DNA from: Sedimentisphaerales bacterium
Lineage (GTDB): Bacteria > Planctomycetota > Phycisphaerae > Sedimentisphaerales > SM23-30
Assembly (NCBI GenBank): GCA_963663965.2
Contig: CAXXFK010000019.1
Location: forward strand, 32,001 to 96,000
Direction of reading: 5' to 3'
Length of the DNA: 64,000 nt
Below are positions 1,796 to 63,383 of the stretch, one piece after another (the stretch's first letter is position 1; each line of letters begins with the position of its first letter). The translations under genes were made by a program, and so were the position numbers. The notes beneath the pieces are model-generated. The model worked only from the letters and a program-made list of their open reading frames with translations. It did not search any database and was not told the DNA's origin.

Positions 1796-1943
1796 CATAA
1801 ATTCTTCAGGTGAGCAATGAATCGCTGGGAATTATGAGGATTTTTAAGGGGTCAGGGATTTTTAAGGTTTTATTTCGAGAGCAATCCTTCGTTAGTCAAC
1901 AGGGCTGGCAACAATAGTTGCGAGAGTATCATTGGCATTAGAG

Positions 1944-2108
1944 AGGCCCGAAGGTCGAAGATCCGCCTCAGGAGGAGCCGGGAGTTCTTAGCCGGGGCCG
2001 GGAGGCCTCGGAAAAGGATGACGAAGGAAAACAGAGCCCTGAAGGGGCGAAAGAAGTTTGTTAAAGATGAACGATTTGAATAAAATATTCTGACGGCCCT
2101 TCGGACCT
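1944..2108. repeat. REP/REPIN-like composite palindromic element
   Basis: Inverted ends aggcccgaagg (1944) and cggcccttcggacct (2094-2108), with internal hairpins ccggggccgggaggcctcgg and gccctgaaggggc. Confidence 0.55.
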
Positions 2109-2122
2109 TACGAATACCATGA

Positions 2123-2296
2123 CCCCGCATTCCGGAGCCTGACGGCGGCGAGTCTCGCACCATCACCGTCACCACCGACGCCGCCGGCCAGTTCACCGCC
2201 GGCCCGCCCGGAACCACCTACCGCCTGACCGCCATCACCCGCAGCGGCTACCGGCTGTTCGCGGAGAACCCCGGCGGCCTGGCCATTATCCCATAA
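2123..2296 (+). pseudogene. GC-rich gene fragment without a start codon
   Basis: Open frame PRIPEPDGGESRTITVTTDAAGQFTAGPPGTTYRLTAITRSGY... with coding-like C-ending codons and an in-frame stop just upstream. The TDxxGxF motif is typical of beta-sandwich surface domains. Confidence 0.4.
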
Positions 2297-2545: not shown

Positions 2546-2574
2546 TTGACATCCATCAAACGCCAGTCTATAAT
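2546..2574 (+). promoter_or_regulatory. Perfect-consensus sigma70 promoter of array locus copy 1
   Basis: TTGACA (2546-2551), 17-bp spacer, TATAAT (2569-2574). The position is conserved in copy 2. Confidence 0.85.
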
Positions 2575-2880
2575 CCCAAAGTCGCCCCAATAGCCCCCGA
2601 ACCCCCGGTGTGCCCCACACCCAACCGGCCACGCCCGCATAACCCCTCTGCGCATAGACCGTGGCGCCTTCAAGCGCAGCTTGTGGGTGCATTCTTGGCT
2701 TGGTGCGATAGCGTACGAACCAGGCCCAACCAGCCAATTTATTTTGGCTGTTTTAACAATACGAATGAAATGGGATATACAAATATGACACAACCCGACA
2801 ACCCAGCCATAAAAGGCTTGAAAAGCCGAAAGTAACTAGCCGGGGTCCGTAAGGCCCCGGATAGCGATTGAAATTTAATA

Positions 2881-3325
2881 TTTAACCCACGCCTCGCAGA
2901 GGCGTACCGCCAGGATTTCGCACCGGAGGCGAAAGATAAAATAACCATGAGCGCAGCGAATACCAACATAAAACGTTGAGCGCAGCGAAATCCCGATCTA
3001 TCGGGAAAGCCAACGATGAAAATAATGACCCTAACCTCAACAACCAAATAAGCTTAACAAAAAATAAAAACTCATCCGCCTCAAGGCGGATACAAATAAT
3101 ATCTCGGAGAGATCAAAAGCGCATAGCCCGCCAATTCATTGGCGGGAATACCCGAACCCGAGTTAGAAAATTTTAAACCCACGCCTCGCAGAGGCGTACC
3201 GACAGGATATCTCGCAAAAGAGATAGATAAAACCAACATGAGCGCAGCGAATACCAATACAAAACGAAACAAACCCAATACATGAAATTTTTTCCATAAC
3301 ATCAATAAAAATTGACTTTAACGAA
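2881..3325 (+). repeat. Repeat-spacer array, copy 1 (2 units: 2881-3093 and 3171-~3325; spacer 3094-3170)
   Basis: Both units share TTTAA(A)CCCACGCCTCGCAGAGGCGTACCGxCAGGAT...AGATAAAA...CATGAGCGCAGCGAATACCAA..AAAACG...AAA(G/C)CCAA. Homologous to the three units at 60603-61346. Confidence 0.9.
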
Positions 3326-3380
3326 ACCCGAAACCATCGGGCCAAAACTTATAACAATCTTAAAACAGGAGGTACCAACC

Positions 3381-4220
3381 ATGTCATCGTCACTAAGAAG
3401 ACTCAGAGCCAACCGTCGTAACGCCCAGAAATCCACCGGCCCCAAAACCCCCGAAGGCAAGGCCATCTCATCCAGAAATGCCATCAAGCACGGCCTCAGC
3501 GGCCAGGACCCCGCCCATCTCATCGTCCCCGGCGAGTCCGAACTCACCTACCTCGAGTTCCGCGCCGCACTCCTGCAAGATCTCAAACCAACGACTTATC
3601 TCCAACGTCACATTGCCGACCAGATCGTCTCGGCCGCCTGGCGACTGGAACGCCTTGGCCGCATCGAAGCCGAAATGATCGACGCCCGCGTCTATCAACT
3701 CCGTCTCACCAACGAAGAAATCCGCAAAGACACCGTCATCGACCAGCCCTTCGCCCACTCCAGCATCTATCTTCCCCGCCACAACGAAGTCGGCGCCGCC
3801 TTCACCCTCGAAGTCCCCGCCTTCAACTGCCTGGCCCGCTACGAAGCCCACCTCAACCGAACCTTCCAGGCCAATCTTAAGCTCCTGCATCAGATGCAGT
3901 TACAACAAAAACCAAACGAACCCAATGCCTACCCGCCAGAGTACCCATTTCCCGATTTACCCCGTATCCACATTCCCGACCCTCCCAGAATCCCCACGCA
4001 CCCCAGCGAAGCCAAATTGGCCCCCGAATACATCAAAGACCGCCTGCCTGAGTTGATGAAAGACCACAGCGTAACTGACGACCAGGTCTTCAGTTACGCC
4101 TGCAACCGCTACGAAGCCCTCAACACCTTCTCCCAGCAGAACGGCGAAGAAGCCCTCCACGCCCTCGGCATCCCTACCAAACCACCCGCCGATATCCCCA
4201 TCCAGGAGGAAAAGAAATGA
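3381..4220 (+). CDS. Conserved hypothetical protein, 'ANRRNAQKSTGPKTPEGK..SSxNAxKHGL' family (copy 1, 279 aa)
   Basis: RBS AGGAGG lies just before ATG 3381. It differs from 59685-60524 at 14 amino acids by manual alignment, plus many synonymous changes. Confidence 0.9.
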   Translation: MSSSLRRLRANRRNAQKSTGPKTPEGKAISSRNAIKHGLSGQDPAHLIVPGESELTYLEFRAALLQDLKPTTYLQRHIADQIVSAAWRLERLGRIEAEMIDARVYQLRLTNEEIRKDTVIDQPFAHSSIYLPRHNEVGAAFTLEVPAFNCLARYEAHLNRTFQANLKLLHQMQLQQKPNEPNAYPPEYPFPDLPRIHIPDPPRIPTHPSEAKLAPEYIKDRLPELMKDHSVTDDQVFSYACNRYEALNTFSQQNGEEALHALGIPTKPPADIPIQEEKK

Positions 4221-4638
4221 CCAGATAAAAAGCCGGCTGACAGACAGTAACTTCAGGAATCATCACGATAGCAATGATGACATCACTTAATCCCTGCGCG
4301 CCTCTGAAGTTAGCTGTTGATAATCTGGGCAATCAATAAATATTGATATTAATGAATGATACAGAAAACAGATGTAAACGAGCGATAAGTACCCGTTGGC
4401 CACATAAATTGTAATCTTATTTTTATCAGTCACTTAGACTGCTGATGAAAATTGGGTTAATCGCGCTGGCGGACATAATGTCAAATTATCTCATGATTTG
4501 AGAAAAGGGATCCGGTGGTCTGAATCTTATAAAATAAAAGTAACCTTTCGTGTTGTCGTATGGTCTTTGGTTTTGTTGCCCAAAGACTCTGTGTGTGTAA
4601 GTCTTTGTGTTTCTAAATCTAATGGAGAGGATTAAAAG

Positions 4639-46208: not shown

Positions 46209-46595
46209 AATTGATAGAATGAAATAAGGTCCAGCTATCGGTAACCATTCGAGAGTTATCCAGATTACGACATAGATTACCAACCGAACAGAAATTTGAA
46301 TAATCGCTTAAAAAACAAAGGTAGAGACTCTCTACCTTTGTTTTTAGGAAAATCTGGGCAGCCCACAGTTCTCGGTTTAAGCTTTCATAGTAAATTGCCG
46401 GCTTCCTCCCGACTGATTCAAAACGAACCCAATTTTCACCATTTATCTAACAATACCATCCAGACTACCTTACCTGTTACGCCAGTAAATTGCTGTATCA
46501 ATAGTCCATGCTTTCAGATTATCCACAAAAAAAAGAGGCCGTCTCCCTATCAGGAAAAAGACCTCTTCAGATGGTTTTAAGTATTTGAAACTAAT

Positions 46596-59544: not shown

Positions 59545-59684
59545 CAGGCAACTTTCTTATGGTTGGGTGGATCGTGATAGTGGTATTTGTCTTAAATATA
59601 ACTGCGCATAGTGTCTCTCATTGCATCATGGTGTCATGATGATTATAGGGGGCGGCGCGCCTTTATGTTGAAATCAGTAATGGA

Positions 59685-60524
59685 TTATTTCTTTTCCTCC
59701 TGGATGGGGATATCGGCCGGGGGTTTGGTGGGGATGCCGAGGGCGTGGAGGGCTTCTTCGCCGTTCTGCTGGGAGAACGTGTTGAGGGCTTCGTAGCGGT
59801 TGCAGGCGTAACTGAAGACCTGATCGTCAGTTACGCTGTGGTCTTTCATCAATTCGGGCAGGCGGTCTTTGATGTATTCGGGGGCCAATTTGGCTTCGCT
59901 GGGGTGTGTGGGGATTTTGGGGGGATCGGGGATGTGGATGCGGGGCAGGTTGGGAAATGGGTACTCGGGTGGGTAAACATTGGGTTCGTTTGGAACGGGT
60001 TGTAACTGAAGTTGCTGAAGGAGGTTGAGTTTGGCCTGGAAGATTCGATTGAGGTGGGCTTCGTAGCGGGCCAGGCAGTTGAAGGCGGGGGTTTCGAGGG
60101 TGAAGGCCGTGCCGACTTCGTTGTGGCGGGGAAGATAGATACTTGAGTGGGCGAAGGGTTGGTCGATGACGGTGTCTTTGCGGATTTCTTCGTTGGTGAG
60201 GCGGAGTTTATAGACGCGGGCGTCGATCATTTCGGCTTCGATGCGGCCGAGGCGTTCAAGGCGCCAGGCGGCCGAGACGATCTGGTCGGCGATGTGGCGC
60301 TGGAGATAAGTCGTTGGTTTGAGGTCTTGTAACAATGCGGCGCGGAATTCGAGGTAGGTGAGTTCGGACTCGCCGGGGACAATGAGGTGGGCGGGGTCCT
60401 GGCCGCTGAGGCCGTGTTTGATGGCATTCTTTGATGAGATGGCCTTGCCCTCGGGGGTTTTTGGGCCGGTGGATTTCTGGGCGTTACGACGGTTGGCGCG
60501 TAGTCTTCTTAGTGACGATGACAT
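59685..60524 (-). CDS. Conserved hypothetical protein, 'ANRRNAQKSTGPKTPEGK' family (copy 2, 279 aa)
   Basis: RBS AAGGAGG; paralog of 3381-4220. Confidence 0.9.
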   Translation of the reverse strand: MSSSLRRLRANRRNAQKSTGPKTPEGKAISSKNAIKHGLSGQDPAHLIVPGESELTYLEFRAALLQDLKPTTYLQRHIADQIVSAAWRLERLGRIEAEMIDARVYKLRLTNEEIRKDTVIDQPFAHSSIYLPRHNEVGTAFTLETPAFNCLARYEAHLNRIFQAKLNLLQQLQLQPVPNEPNVYPPEYPFPNLPRIHIPDPPKIPTHPSEAKLAPEYIKDRLPELMKDHSVTDDQVFSYACNRYEALNTFSQQNGEEALHALGIPTKPPADIPIQEEKK

Positions 60525-60553
60525 GGTGGGTACCTCCTTGGTTGGGAATTATT

Positions 60554-60588
60554 AATTACGAATTACGAGTTACGAGTTACGAATTACG
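60554..60588. repeat. 7-bp tandem repeat (ARTTACG)x5
   Basis: aattacg aattacg agttacg agttacg aattacg. Confidence 0.85.
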
Positions 60589-60602
60589 AATTTAAAATTG
60601 TG

Positions 60603-61346
60603 GTATCCGCCAAGTGGCGGATGTTCGTTTTATTTTTAGTTAAGCTCAATTCTTGGTTGAGGTTAGGGCGATATTTTTTCATGTTGGGTTTGTTTCGTTT
60701 TATGTTGGTATTCGCTGCGCTCATGGCTGGTTTTATCTTTCGCCTCCGGTGCGAAATCCTGCAGGTACGCCTCTGCGAGGCGTGGGTTTAAAATTTTCTA
60801 CGCTGGTTCGGGTATTCCCGCCAATGAATTGGCGGGCTATGCGCTTTTGATCTCTCCGAGATATTATTTGTATCCGCCATTCGGCGGATGATTTTTTTAT
60901 TTTTCGTTAAGCTCGTTTCATTGTTGGGGTTAGGGCAATATTTTAACCCATTGGCTTTGTTTCGTTTTCTGTTGGTATTCGCTGCGCTCATGGTAAGTTT
61001 TATCTATCTCTTTTGCGAGATATCCTGTCGGTACGCCTCTGCGAGGCGAGGGTTTAAAATTTCAATCTCATGATCGTTACCCAGGGTGGCGCTCGTCCCG
61101 TTATACGGGATTCGCTCTACCCTGGGCTGTTTTATGCCGGCCCGTTGGGCCGCTTTGGGTATCCGCCTGCGGCGGATGTTCGTATAATTTTGGTTAAGTT
61201 TCGTTCGTTGTTCAGGTTAGAGTGATATTTTTTCCTGTTGGCTTTGTTTCGTTTTGTGTTGGTATTCGCTGCTCTCATGTTAGTTTTATCTTTCGCCTCC
61301 GGTGCGAAATCCTGTCGGTACGCCTCTACGAGGCGTGGGTTTAAAA
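60603..61346 (-). repeat. Repeat-spacer array, copy 2 (3 units: 61159-61346, 60870-61059, 60603-60793)
   Basis: Three ~190-bp units with the same conserved blocks as copy 1, separated by two different spacers of about 76 and 99 bp. Confidence 0.92.
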
Positions 61347-61650
61347 TTAAATTTCAATCTCTATCCGGGGCCTTACGGACCCCGGCTAGTTACTTTCGGC
61401 TTTTCAAGCCTTTTATGGCTGGGTTGTCGGGTTGTGTCATATTTGTATATCCCATTTCATTCGTATTGTTAAAACAGCCAAAATAAATTGGCTGGTTGGG
61501 CCTGGTTCGTACGCTATCGCACCAAGCCAAGAATGCACCCATAAGCTGCGCTTGAAGGCGCCACGGTTTATGCGCATAAAATCTCTGTAGGCGTGGCCGG
61601 TTGGGTGTGGGGCACACCGGGGGTTCGGGGGCTATTGGGGCGACTTTGGG

Positions 61651-61679
61651 ATTATAGACTGAGTTGTTGTATTAGTCAA
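61651..61679 (-). promoter_or_regulatory. Sigma70 promoter of array locus copy 2
   Basis: On the minus strand: TTGACT (61679-61674), 17-bp spacer, TATAAT (61656-61651). Confidence 0.82.
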
Positions 61680-61839
61680 AACAAATATTATGTTTTTAAT
61701 TTAAATAACATAAAATTTAAGGTATTATGTTTTTGTGGTAGTTTAGTTTTAGAGGTGAAATTCAGCTGACCTATTCTTAATGGTTTATTAGTTATAGATT
61801 TATGTTGATTTAAGGCGTTGTCAACAAAATAATATACTC

Positions 61840-63383
61840 GTAACATTTTAGCCAACTGAAGCAAATTTTCTAAAATTGTCAAGAAAACGCTTGCGCCCGT
61901 GTTTGTTTTGTGTATGCTTAACAAGCATGAGCATGCATAGTAAAGCCCAACAGATTCTGGCCAACCTGAACGGACCGATGACGGCCGAGCAGGCGCGGGC
62001 GATATTTGCCTTGGGTGAAGAGGCGGTGGTGTTTGCTTTGCTGAAATTGTCGTCGCTTCAGACCGTTTCGCCCGCTTCCACTACGGGGGCGTTGGGGCCT
62101 CACGATCCCTCGTGCTCTTCGGGACAGAAACCGCCGTTTGTCAAAGACAATCTCTCGGACAAGCGGCGTAAGAAACTCAAGGGACGCAAAGCGGGTCATC
62201 CCGGCGTTCGCCGACCGGCTCCTGACCGGGTCGACCGGACCGAAGCGCATCGGGCCGACTGTTGTCCGGATTGCGGCGGCCACCTGAAGCGCTGTGCCGA
62301 GACCCGCGAACGACTGATCGAAGACCTGCCCGCCTCGACCCGCATTGAAGTCGTTCGCCATATCATTCATCGCGACTGGTGTTCCAACTGCCGCAAGATG
62401 GTTGAACCGGTGATTGACGCCGCTCTGCCACGCGCCACCGTTGGCAATGGGATGCTGGTGTTGTGCGCCTGGCTGCATTTTGCCCTGGGCAACACGATTT
62501 CGCAGATTCTGGCGGTGTTCAATTACCATTTGCAATTTAAAATGTCCGGCGGCGGCCTGGTGCAGATGTGGCACCGGCTGGCGACCATTCTGGAAGCCTG
62601 GTACGATGAAATTCTGGCTGACATTCAGAAGGTCGGCGCCTTGTTTGCCGACGAGACGGGCTGGCGGATGGATGGCAAAACCCATTGGCTCTGGTGCTTT
62701 ACCAGCGCGACGGCCACCATCTTTACTATCGAGCAATCGCGGGCCGGGCCGGTGGTGCTGGCGTTTATTAAAGAATGGTTCGACGGCGTGTTGGTGAGCG
62801 ACTTCTGGTACGCTTACAATGTGCTGGATTGCGCCAAACAAAAATGCCTGGTGCACCTGTTGCGCGAGTTGGAGCGGGTCAAAAAATATAAGAACTGCGA
62901 CAGCGACTGGCCCCGGTTTGGCAAATCGCTCAAGCGGTTGCTGCGCGATGCCATCCGTCTGAGCAAGCGGCAGGCGGACCTGGAACCGGCCATCTACCAG
63001 CGGCGTTGCGCCCTCATCGAAAAACGACTGCAAGCGATTCTGGATCATGCCTGGTCCCATCCCGATGCCAAGCGGCTGATAAAACGGCTCAAACGTCATC
63101 AAGCCGAACTGTTTACCTTTTTGTATCATCCGGAAGTGCCCTTCGACAATAACTTCGGCGAACGCAGTATCCGTGGCGCAGTGATCATGCGCAAAAACAG
63201 CTACAACAACCGCAGCCCGCGGGGCGCCCGCATCCAATCCATCCTGATGAGCGTGTTCTACACCCTCAAACAGCGTGGTCTCAATCCGGTCGCCGCTGTC
63301 AAAAAAGCACTGCAAATCTATCTCCAAACGGGTAAATTACCTACTTTAGCCCAATTACCTGCTTCACTTGGCTAAAATCTTAC
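61840..63383 (+). mobile_element. IS66 family element, single-ORF (ISBst12-like), 1544 bp
   Basis: 24-bp TIRs gtaacattttagccaactgaagca and tgcttcacttggctaaaatcttac (2 mismatches), with an 8-bp TSD ATATACTC at 61832-61839 and 63384-63391. Confidence 0.95.
61927..63375 (+). CDS. IS66 family transposase (TnpC)
   Basis: Motifs GRKAGHPG, CPDCG..CSNC zinc finger, ADETGW, LVSD, QKCLVHLLR and DNNFGERSIR. Confidence 0.93.
   Translation: MSMHSKAQQILANLNGPMTAEQARAIFALGEEAVVFALLKLSSLQTVSPASTTGALGPHDPSCSSGQKPPFVKDNLSDKRRKKLKGRKAGHPGVRRPAPDRVDRTEAHRADCCPDCGGHLKRCAETRERLIEDLPASTRIEVVRHIIHRDWCSNCRKMVEPVIDAALPRATVGNGMLVLCAWLHFALGNTISQILAVFNYHLQFKMSGGGLVQMWHRLATILEAWYDEILADIQKVGALFADETGWRMDGKTHWLWCFTSATATIFTIEQSRAGPVVLAFIKEWFDGVLVSDFWYAYNVLDCAKQKCLVHLLRELERVKKYKNCDSDWPRFGKSLKRLLRDAIRLSKRQADLEPAIYQRRCALIEKRLQAILDHAWSHPDAKRLIKRLKRHQAELFTFLYHPEVPFDNNFGERSIRGAVIMRKNSYNNRSPRGARIQSILMSVFYTLKQRGLNPVAAVKKALQIYLQTGKLPTLAQLPASLG

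Follow-up and report, generated by a model that had tools for sequence, protein, structure and literature searches.

A multicopy gene unit with a consensus promoter, a mosaic leader of hairpin repeats and an unannotated protein in a Sedimentisphaerales genome

What kind of genetic unit joins a consensus promoter and a long structured leader to a protein of no recognizable family? The question is raised by positions 2546-4220 of the DNA analyzed here (the window), a 64,000-nt stretch of a Sedimentisphaerales bacterium that corresponds to C19:32001-96000 (contig and positions) of a 7.24-Mb assembly of 42 contigs, 94.6% complete and with 5.4% contamination; contigs of the read runs suggest that this assembly, our source genome (G000), is a low-depth metagenome bin. 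We refer to the 279-aa protein of the unit (P0001) as P1 and to a second multicopy orphan gene, of 261 aa, as P2. The original prediction, made from the letters of the window, read the leader as repeats separated by spacers and proposed an array-guided system as one explanation. The explanation that we favor, with a probability of roughly 0.6, is that the locus is one of 26 copies of an old, self-contained and probably highly expressed gene unit, that its leader is a mosaic like those formed by repetitive extragenic palindromic sequences and bacterial interspersed mosaic elements (REP/BIME), and that its promoter-leader cassette has been reused. Copy 1 of the window is laid out as follows.

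2546-2574, plus strand: sigma-70 consensus promoter, TTGACA (2546-2551), 17 nt, TATAAT (2569-2574), scoring 12/12; transcription would start near 2581
2581-2876, plus strand: leader head, a mosaic of short hairpins with insertions and deletions of whole hairpins between copies (alignment of 24 heads; fold)
2877-3168, plus strand: leader module unit 1, with submodules A, B and C (direct repeats D3 and D4, spaced 291-292 nt)
3074-3091, plus strand: hairpin ATCCGCC-TCAA-GGCGGAT, terminator-like when read on the antisense strand
3169-3366, plus strand: partial leader module unit 2 and the segment before the ribosome-binding site (RBS) (repeat matches and matches of 25-nt bins)
3367-3372, plus strand: Shine-Dalgarno sequence AGGAGG, 8 nt before the ATG (from the sequence)
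3381-4220, plus strand: P1 gene, 279 aa, ATG at 3381 (open reading frame (ORF); genome-wide protein matches)
3914-3926, plus strand: sense-strand motif AAACGAACCCAAT within the P1 coding sequence (CDS), found in 26/26 CDS copies
4221-4300, plus strand: 3′ tail of the unit, with a hairpin at 4260-4280 and the end ..CTGCGCG (tail alignments)

Much of this had been described correctly beforehand, namely the perfect TTGACA-17-TATAAT promoter, the A/C-rich leader of about 800 nt (about 2581-3380, up to the AGGAGG), the strong RBS followed by a 279-aa ORF that ends at 4220, and a second copy near 59685-61679, which lies on the minus strand. The recurrence of promoter, leader and gene as one unit is also confirmed, but the number of two copies was far too low: a protein search of the genome yielded 26 full-length P1 copies without stops, at 92-97% identity, together with two fragments. 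All 26 coding sequences are exactly 840 nt long. Over the 325 pairs the mean dN is 0.027 and the mean dS 0.28, a ratio of 0.095 that falls to 0.033 in the N-terminal 60 codons, the most constrained part, and the five reciprocal-nearest pairs have proportions of synonymous differences (pS) of 0.134-0.189 and a pooled ratio of 0.114; these dN/dS figures are open to distortion by gene conversion and codon bias. With synonymous differences of 13-19% even in the nearest pairs and a pooled ratio this low, the copies are old, and purifying selection has preserved each of them intact. They are unlike a recently active insertion sequence.

The alignment of all copies gives the unit five parts: AT-rich upstream DNA with a palindrome, the promoter, the leader, the RBS with P1, and a tail of 79 nt. 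The earlier statement that homology stops at the promoter and at the stop codon is true of the two window copies compared with each other but not of the genome as a whole, where the tail and the upstream DNA are common to copies. Downstream, the end ..TGCGCA was found in 18/26 copies, 17 times at +79 to +82 and once at +67, and the flanks beyond it are unrelated. The best evidence of selection on structure, which had been claimed for the ATCCGCC hairpin of the leader, comes from a hairpin in this tail (at about +36 to +62), which is kept despite a tail p-distance of 0.48 between copies. At least 6 pairs form in 25/26 copies and at least 7 in 22/26, compared with a mean of 7.7 and a maximum of 14 copies with at least 7 pairs in 200 shuffles. 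The 5′ arm takes 23 distinct forms, and the stems comprise 190 Watson-Crick, 13 G-U and 5 A-C pairs, which mildly favors the sense strand.

At the other end, about 215 nt of AT-rich DNA starting with (G)GTC-TTTATAAAACACAGTG is common to most copies. The TTTATAAAACACAGTG end motif lies upstream of 19/26 copies, usually about 215 nt before the -10 box, and a genome-wide count gave 25 matches to the 5′ motif TTTATRAAWCACAGWG and 1 to the reversed control. The palindrome ATATTATGTT-N12-AACATAATAT adjoins the -35 box, and a 5′ hairpin TGTTGA..TCAACA was seen by eye only. In a "type B" subset, to which copy 1 of the window belongs, a small secreted-protein gene precedes the unit instead. The aligned ends of the 26 copies revealed neither terminal inverted repeats nor target duplications. 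A likeness of the palindrome and the TGCGCA end to dif/Xer sites, judged by eye, was unconvincing. Copy 2 of the window is 92% identical to copy 1 over 852 nt and 95% identical over 412 nt, and its parts are these.

59603-59684, minus strand: 3′ tail, with a hairpin at 59624-59641 and the end ..TGCGCA (tail alignments)
59685-60524, minus strand: P1 gene, 279 aa (homology to copy 1)
60525-61650, minus strand: leader of three module units (spacing 266-287 nt) and head, with ATCCGCC hairpins at 60605-60622, 60872-60889 and 61161-61177
61651-61679, minus strand: promoter TTGACT-17-TATAAT, scoring 11/12
61680-61858, minus strand: AT-rich upstream region of type A, with a degenerate 5′ end and the palindrome TTATGTT..AACATAA (alignments; outer boundary approximate)

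The leader, which is 0.5-1.3 kb long across units and has all its modules in one orientation, is where our results depart most from the original prediction. The repeats had been given as about 190 bp long and separated by distinct spacers. The period that we measured is 266-292 nt, and the spacers are themselves repeats: each 25-nt bin of 2571-3380 matches at least 7 other places in the genome, usually 15-95, and the first bin at the promoter edge (from 2546) has a minimum of 2. BLAST searches of the genome returned 105 matches for submodule A, 61 for B and 55 for C. The 94 A-modules comprise 59 upstream of P1, 7 downstream of P2 and 28 elsewhere, and all 66 of those near P1 or P2 follow the direction of the gene, with none opposite. 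The leader modules are thereby shown to be a genome-wide repeat family of the REP/BIME kind and not repeat-spacer units. The alignment of 24 heads gives the same picture of entire hairpins gained, lost or exchanged among copies. Within module A one hairpin is invariant, and hairpin 2 has two covarying forms, found in 38 and 35 of the 73 distinct sequences. The hairpin ATCCGCC-loop-GGCGGAT occurs 69 times in the genome with at least 15 different loops, versus 0 for the reversed control, and the four examples first noticed in the window do have an invariant stem and the loops TCAA, ACTT, GAAT and GCA. The sense RNA of 2581-3380 folds at -209.6 kcal/mol versus a dinucleotide-shuffle mean of -167.8 kcal/mol (z -5.03, with 0/20 shuffles as stable); the antisense strand gives a z of -1.17, with 2/20 shuffles as stable. 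The Rfam covariance models had no match at the gathering score in the window, the best match in the leader having an E value of 0.53, and an Rfam scan of 20 homologue loci found only one tmRNA and one tRNA.

Several minor observations concern the leader. The whole unit is asymmetric between strands, with A 0.27, C 0.40, G 0.18 and T 0.15 in the CDS and A 0.36 and C 0.27 in the leader. Two P1 leaders contain an IS110-family transposase gene (PF01548 and PF02371) in the opposite orientation (G000:C36:6373-7605 and C3:48865-50100), which suggests that an IS110-family element targets a leader repeat. Stand-alone module arrays at G000:C42:48868-51000 and C32:170096-172191 are followed by an ORF with what by eye look like RHS/YD repeats, and at these two places the cassette may drive other cargo.

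That the cassette is reused before unrelated genes is shown by its promoter box, TATAATNCCAMAGTCG, which occurs 36 times in the genome and leads to P1 in 26 cases and to other genes in 10, including beta-helix/GH141-like, GFO_IDH_MocA oxidoreductase, PEP-CTERM, rhamnosidase-like and GGDEF-HD response regulator genes. The proposed tie between unit and gene therefore stands in part: 26 copies recur whole, but the promoter-leader part is found without P1 at 10/36 boxes. P2 (MNRSMQILARAQYYH...) occurs at 16 places outside the window, some of them partial (for example C13:103698-104480). It has the TATAATCCCAACAGTCG box and the palindrome in common with P1, its leader is only about 70 nt long, and the hairpin and CA-rich modules of P2 units lie downstream of the gene; the low-complexity C-terminus of P2 also translates the AACGAACCCAA motif. 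About 15 P2 copies would be served by the promoter alone. P2 had no match in Pfam, PHROG or PADLOC, and a word-based search found no homologue of it beyond this genome.

Among known systems, the closest comparison for the leader is provided by the REP/BIME-type mosaics, which include the REPIN-RAYT systems (REP doublets forming hairpins, with REP-associated tyrosine transposases), the neisserial NIME/Correia elements and the pneumococcal BOX elements. Like these, the leader consists of short hairpin modules in variable mosaics, numbering from tens to roughly a hundred in non-coding DNA that is probably transcribed, with long persistence, stems that are kept and loops that vary. Unlike them, the leader modules have one orientation, 59/94 A-modules belong to the 5′ leader of a single gene family, and they are tied to a promoter. 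A REPIN-RAYT system would also have a dedicated Y1 gene flanked by its repeats. The source genome has 11 matches to Y1_Tnp (IS200/RAYT-like), four of them to a multicopy type of 226-245 aa, and some lie a few kb from P2 copies, but the Y1 loci have only short repeats in common with the units. Sites of Y1_Tnp genes include C19:125714, C32:102700, C22:74080, C11:18156, C30:159552 and C28:556388. TnpB had no match in this genome. For REPINs the reference is PMC8049555. Promoter reuse invites a second comparison, with the putative mobile promoters (PMC3575422). One promoter region stands before non-homologous genes in both cases (here the 10/36 P1-type boxes and the P2 box), but the piece reused here extends over about 215 nt of upstream DNA and as much as 1.3 kb of structured leader and mostly serves one gene family.

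P1 itself is shown to belong to a very large, unannotated and patchily distributed family. The earlier observation that it has no transposase, reverse transcriptase (RT) or Cas motif was correct, as Pfam and NCBIfam returned 0 families, and so did PHROG and PADLOC. An exhaustive phmmer search collected 22,109 representative clusters at E<=1e-3 and, at the stricter E<=1e-10, 5,417, and a genome scan gave at least 539 P1 loci in Acidobacteriota, Planctomycetota (Pirellulales, Phycisphaerae and Sedimentisphaerales), Alphaproteobacteria (including a Pelagibacter record), Actinomycetota and Verrucomicrobiota. P1 occurs in 8/31 relatives and in 11/151 genomes of a phylum sample, both counts including the source genome, and 2/18 same-family genomes carry it; the same-family genomes have distant homologues only. 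The conserved N-terminus reads ANRRNAxKSTGPxTxxGKxxSxxNAxKHGL and is accompanied by the helices WRLxR and RYExR; among the invariant columns are N11, R12, N14, A15, S18, T19, G20, P21, N33, G38, W87 and R91, and the C-terminus is variable across the family and proline-rich. The AlphaFold2 model is all-helical, with a pLDDT (predicted local distance difference test score) of 72.7 and a long helical hairpin at 73-118/145-176. A Foldseek search of this model against the PDB gave nothing at E<=1e-3, a wide VIA-align search gave generic coiled coils only (best Z 8.5), a PDB sequence profile search gave none below E 0.17, and the ESM Atlas search returned unnamed clusters only.

The homologues are often multicopy with unit-sized DNA homology, for example at five loci of one Bryobacterales metagenome-assembled genome (MAG) and in pairs in Terriglobia, Solibacteraceae and Sedimentisphaerales. 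A promoter with at most 2 mismatches lies upstream in 13/71 homologue loci, versus 2/71 on the antisense strand and 1/65 far upstream. The 114 flanking ORFs of homologue loci contain no conserved partner and are a mixture of housekeeping genes with mobile and defence genes. The same repeats had been expected upstream of homologues, which is not what we found: in the six Planctomycetota loci examined for this the leaders are short, and any repeats follow the gene. A check of 60 homologue loci for integration at tRNA or tmRNA genes revealed no tRNA and one tmRNA adjoining repeats; at this Phycisphaerae MAG locus (L048:2494-2843) an CAAACCCAAT array that follows the P1 homologue runs directly up to the 3′ end of the convergent tmRNA gene. 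A literature search with the motif strings found no relevant paper, and a general search on repeats of Planctomycetes found nothing useful.

What does accompany the homologues is a CA-rich nucleotide motif. Several of them have NEPN, TNPI or RTQF after the conserved domain, which corresponds at the DNA level to the 13-nt, AAACGAACCCAAT-like motif AA[AG]C[AG]AA[CG]CCAA. On the sense strand, between +400 and +1300 from the start, it was found in 36/80 homologue loci (73 matches, 1.08 per kb), compared with 3/80 on the antisense strand, 4/80 in the upstream region and 1/80 far downstream. Within ORFs its matches use all three reading frames (10, 8 and 5), and in some Planctomycetota it forms arrays after the gene with a period of about 90-100 nt. 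The source genome has 264 matches, versus 17 for the control; 119 of them are in P1 or P2 units, all on the sense strand, and each of the 26 P1 coding sequences holds one. We scanned a total of 181 genomes for the motif, namely the source genome, 30 relatives and 150 further genomes of the phylum. Three were motif-rich, the source genome included (156, 130 and 32 matches), and all three are P1-positive. In the two relatives among them, G024 (130) and G029 (32), the motif stands in the P1 tail, and the maximum in the 150 further genomes was 6, with 0-4 matches in the 10 that are P1-positive. The motif is thus tied to the tail of the P1 gene; its arrays far outnumber P1 genes, and P1 also occurs without abundant arrays. 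In the window, a lone copy (CAAAACGAACCCAATTTTC) lies at 46410-46435 between convergent genes, just after the terminator-like hairpin of the plus-strand gene, which means that the motif is also found singly in ordinary 3′ regions.

These findings matter beyond a single genome. A protein family of more than 22,000 clusters in at least five phyla is without annotation, and its genes form stand-alone units behind near-consensus promoters, often in several copies, with P1 traveling in the company of a frame-independent nucleotide motif and hairpin repeats. Knowing the binding target of P1 would explain many "hypothetical" genes, and a new partnership between a protein and repeats, or a new way of regulating genes through their leaders, could come to light. 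The promoter-leader cassette, being reusable, gives a clear example from nature of how promoters propagate.

If the locus is an old, self-contained gene unit, as we favor, its leader and 3′ hairpin would act in cis on the mRNA, on its stability, termination or translation, and the basic, invariant N-terminus of P1 would bind nucleic acid. Past spread of the unit would have been at the DNA level, through a mechanism that produces sharp and asymmetric ends, and the unit may now be moving rarely or no longer. The cspA-type stress genes and the N/boxB antitermination of phage lambda offer analogies for such a mechanism: cspA also has an AT-rich upstream element, a strong promoter, a long structured 5′ untranslated region and several paralogues, and lambda N resembles P1 in having an arginine-rich N-terminus, which here stands beside a hairpin-rich, C-rich and G-poor leader that might be expected to attract Rho. 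No relationship of sequence or fold between P1 and either system was found. Several of our results count against this explanation. P1 has no match to a nucleic-acid-binding fold or sequence. The sharp ends and the patchy distribution fit a mobile element as well as a host gene family. The non-coding parts of the unit diverge by 0.20-0.48, as fast as or faster than four-fold sites (0.169), so that most of the primary sequence of the leader is not visibly constrained. The stems of module A contain 4 G-U and 7 A-C pairs, wobble counts by which the sense strand is not favored. Moreover, on the antisense strand a T-run follows the stem of 52/69 ATCCGCC hairpins (on the sense strand an A-run precedes it), whereas on the sense strand a T-run follows the stem in 0/69. 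This terminator-like look of the antisense strand may be a by-product of A-richness or may reflect a real antisense-facing function.

The latter possibility would make the modules antisense-facing terminators or insulators, or sources of antisense small RNAs, that shield the promoter and its neighbors from convergent transcription. It agrees with the T-runs, with the excess of A-C over G-U pairs in module A and with a terminator scan that calls the ATCCGCC hairpins and GGCTTTTCAAGCC antisense terminator-like in both window copies. We nevertheless regard it as quite unlikely, given that the T-runs perhaps come from the A-rich sense strand (22/69 hairpins are A-rich on the 3′ side too), that no antisense promoter-like site of at least 10/12 lies within either window unit, that the sense strand, unlike the antisense strand, folds far more stably than its shuffles, and that module orientation is fixed, with none of the 66 modules near P1 or P2 reversed. 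A different view of the sharp, asymmetric ends is that the unit is a single-protein mobile element whose P1 serves in mobility or maintenance, as an unrecognized recombinase or as the RAYT-like counterpart of the CA-rich and hairpin repeats, and recognizes the 5′ TTTATAAAACACAGTG and the 3′ hairpin followed by TGCGCA. Multicopy homologues with unit-sized homology in other genomes, the patchy distribution, the mobile and defence genes frequent among the neighbors, the presence of P1, its tail bearing the motif, in each of the three motif-rich genomes, and the invariant polar residues of the N-terminal 40 aa are in keeping with this. The element would resemble the non-autonomous (PATE-like) elements of the IS200/IS605 type, which have asymmetric ends and passenger genes: here too the ends are asymmetric, with neither terminal inverted repeats nor a target duplication to be seen, the 3′ end is preceded at a distance of about 17 nt by a subterminal hairpin, and Y1 genes are present in the genome. 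The unit differs from such elements in having no TnpA or TnpB and no defined target sequence, and in copies that are old and selected. We consider a mobile element of this kind unlikely. Near-identical copies are absent, the nearest pairs having a pS of at least 0.13, and dN/dS is about 0.1 even for these; flanking inverted repeats were found in 4/63 homologue loci, three of them from one genome, versus 1/54 controls; P1 is small and all-helical, without a match to a catalytic fold; and the other P1-positive genomes of the phylum sample are poor in the motif. Contigs from three low-depth metagenome DNA runs bridged no empty site cleanly and gave only short-sided joints.

The array-guided system of the original prediction, with repeat-spacer units supplying guides to the protein, is the explanation to which we give the least weight, and we find it highly implausible. 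The periodic repeats beside a gene of unassigned function do recall a CRISPR array, but the leader has no unique spacers, and for this reason the idea fails. In addition, the period is 266-292 nt, the number and order of modules vary by insertion and deletion of whole modules, the same modules recur in the 3′ regions of P2, and neither cas genes nor a nuclease, RT or Cas partner was found with Pfam, NCBIfam, PHROG, PADLOC or among the ORFs that flank homologue loci; the six homologue loci examined for this are without upstream arrays, and the motif lies upstream in 4/80 loci. A last explanation concerns the family and not the single unit, and takes P1 together with the sense-strand CA-rich motif and hairpin repeats as a previously unrecognized partnership, found in at least five phyla and either similar to RAYT-REPIN or based on RNA binding. 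P1 may be a new single-protein factor by which these repeats are dispersed or maintained as DNA, or it may be an arginine-rich regulator that binds RNA and recognizes the repeats in transcripts, its own among them, where it might for instance counter Rho on long C-rich leaders. The motif in the tail of 36/80 loci, whatever the reading frame, and the presence of P1 in all three motif-rich genomes speak for such a partnership, which we hold to be a doubtful proposition. Readings as a diversity-generating retroelement, as integron attC sites or as a precursor of ribosomally synthesized and post-translationally modified peptides were also considered and rejected, since the unit lacks an RT, its copies are scattered, and a comparison of all 26 shows no hypervariable C-termini.

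Two further features lie just upstream of copy 1 in the window.

1880-2130, plus strand: more leader-type repeat modules (49 genome matches, several in other P1 leaders, in the same orientation)
2123-2296, plus strand: 57-codon 3′ fragment of a gene for a small secreted CarboxypepD_reg-like protein (open frame; 99% identity over 140 nt to a segment upstream of copy C42)

An intact 102-aa paralogue of this fragment has a weak match to PF13620, under the curated cut-off. Short tandem repeats are another small-scale feature of these loci. One lies just before the RBS of copy 2 (window 60548-60595, minus strand), and in several phyla tandem repeats of 7-10 nt with stop codons (TCGTAAT, TAGTAAA, AATCAAT, CTGACCC and ACGACAAATA) adjoin the start or stop of P1, with further examples at L074:2536-2561, upstream at L052, L049 and L051, and at L066:3703-3750.

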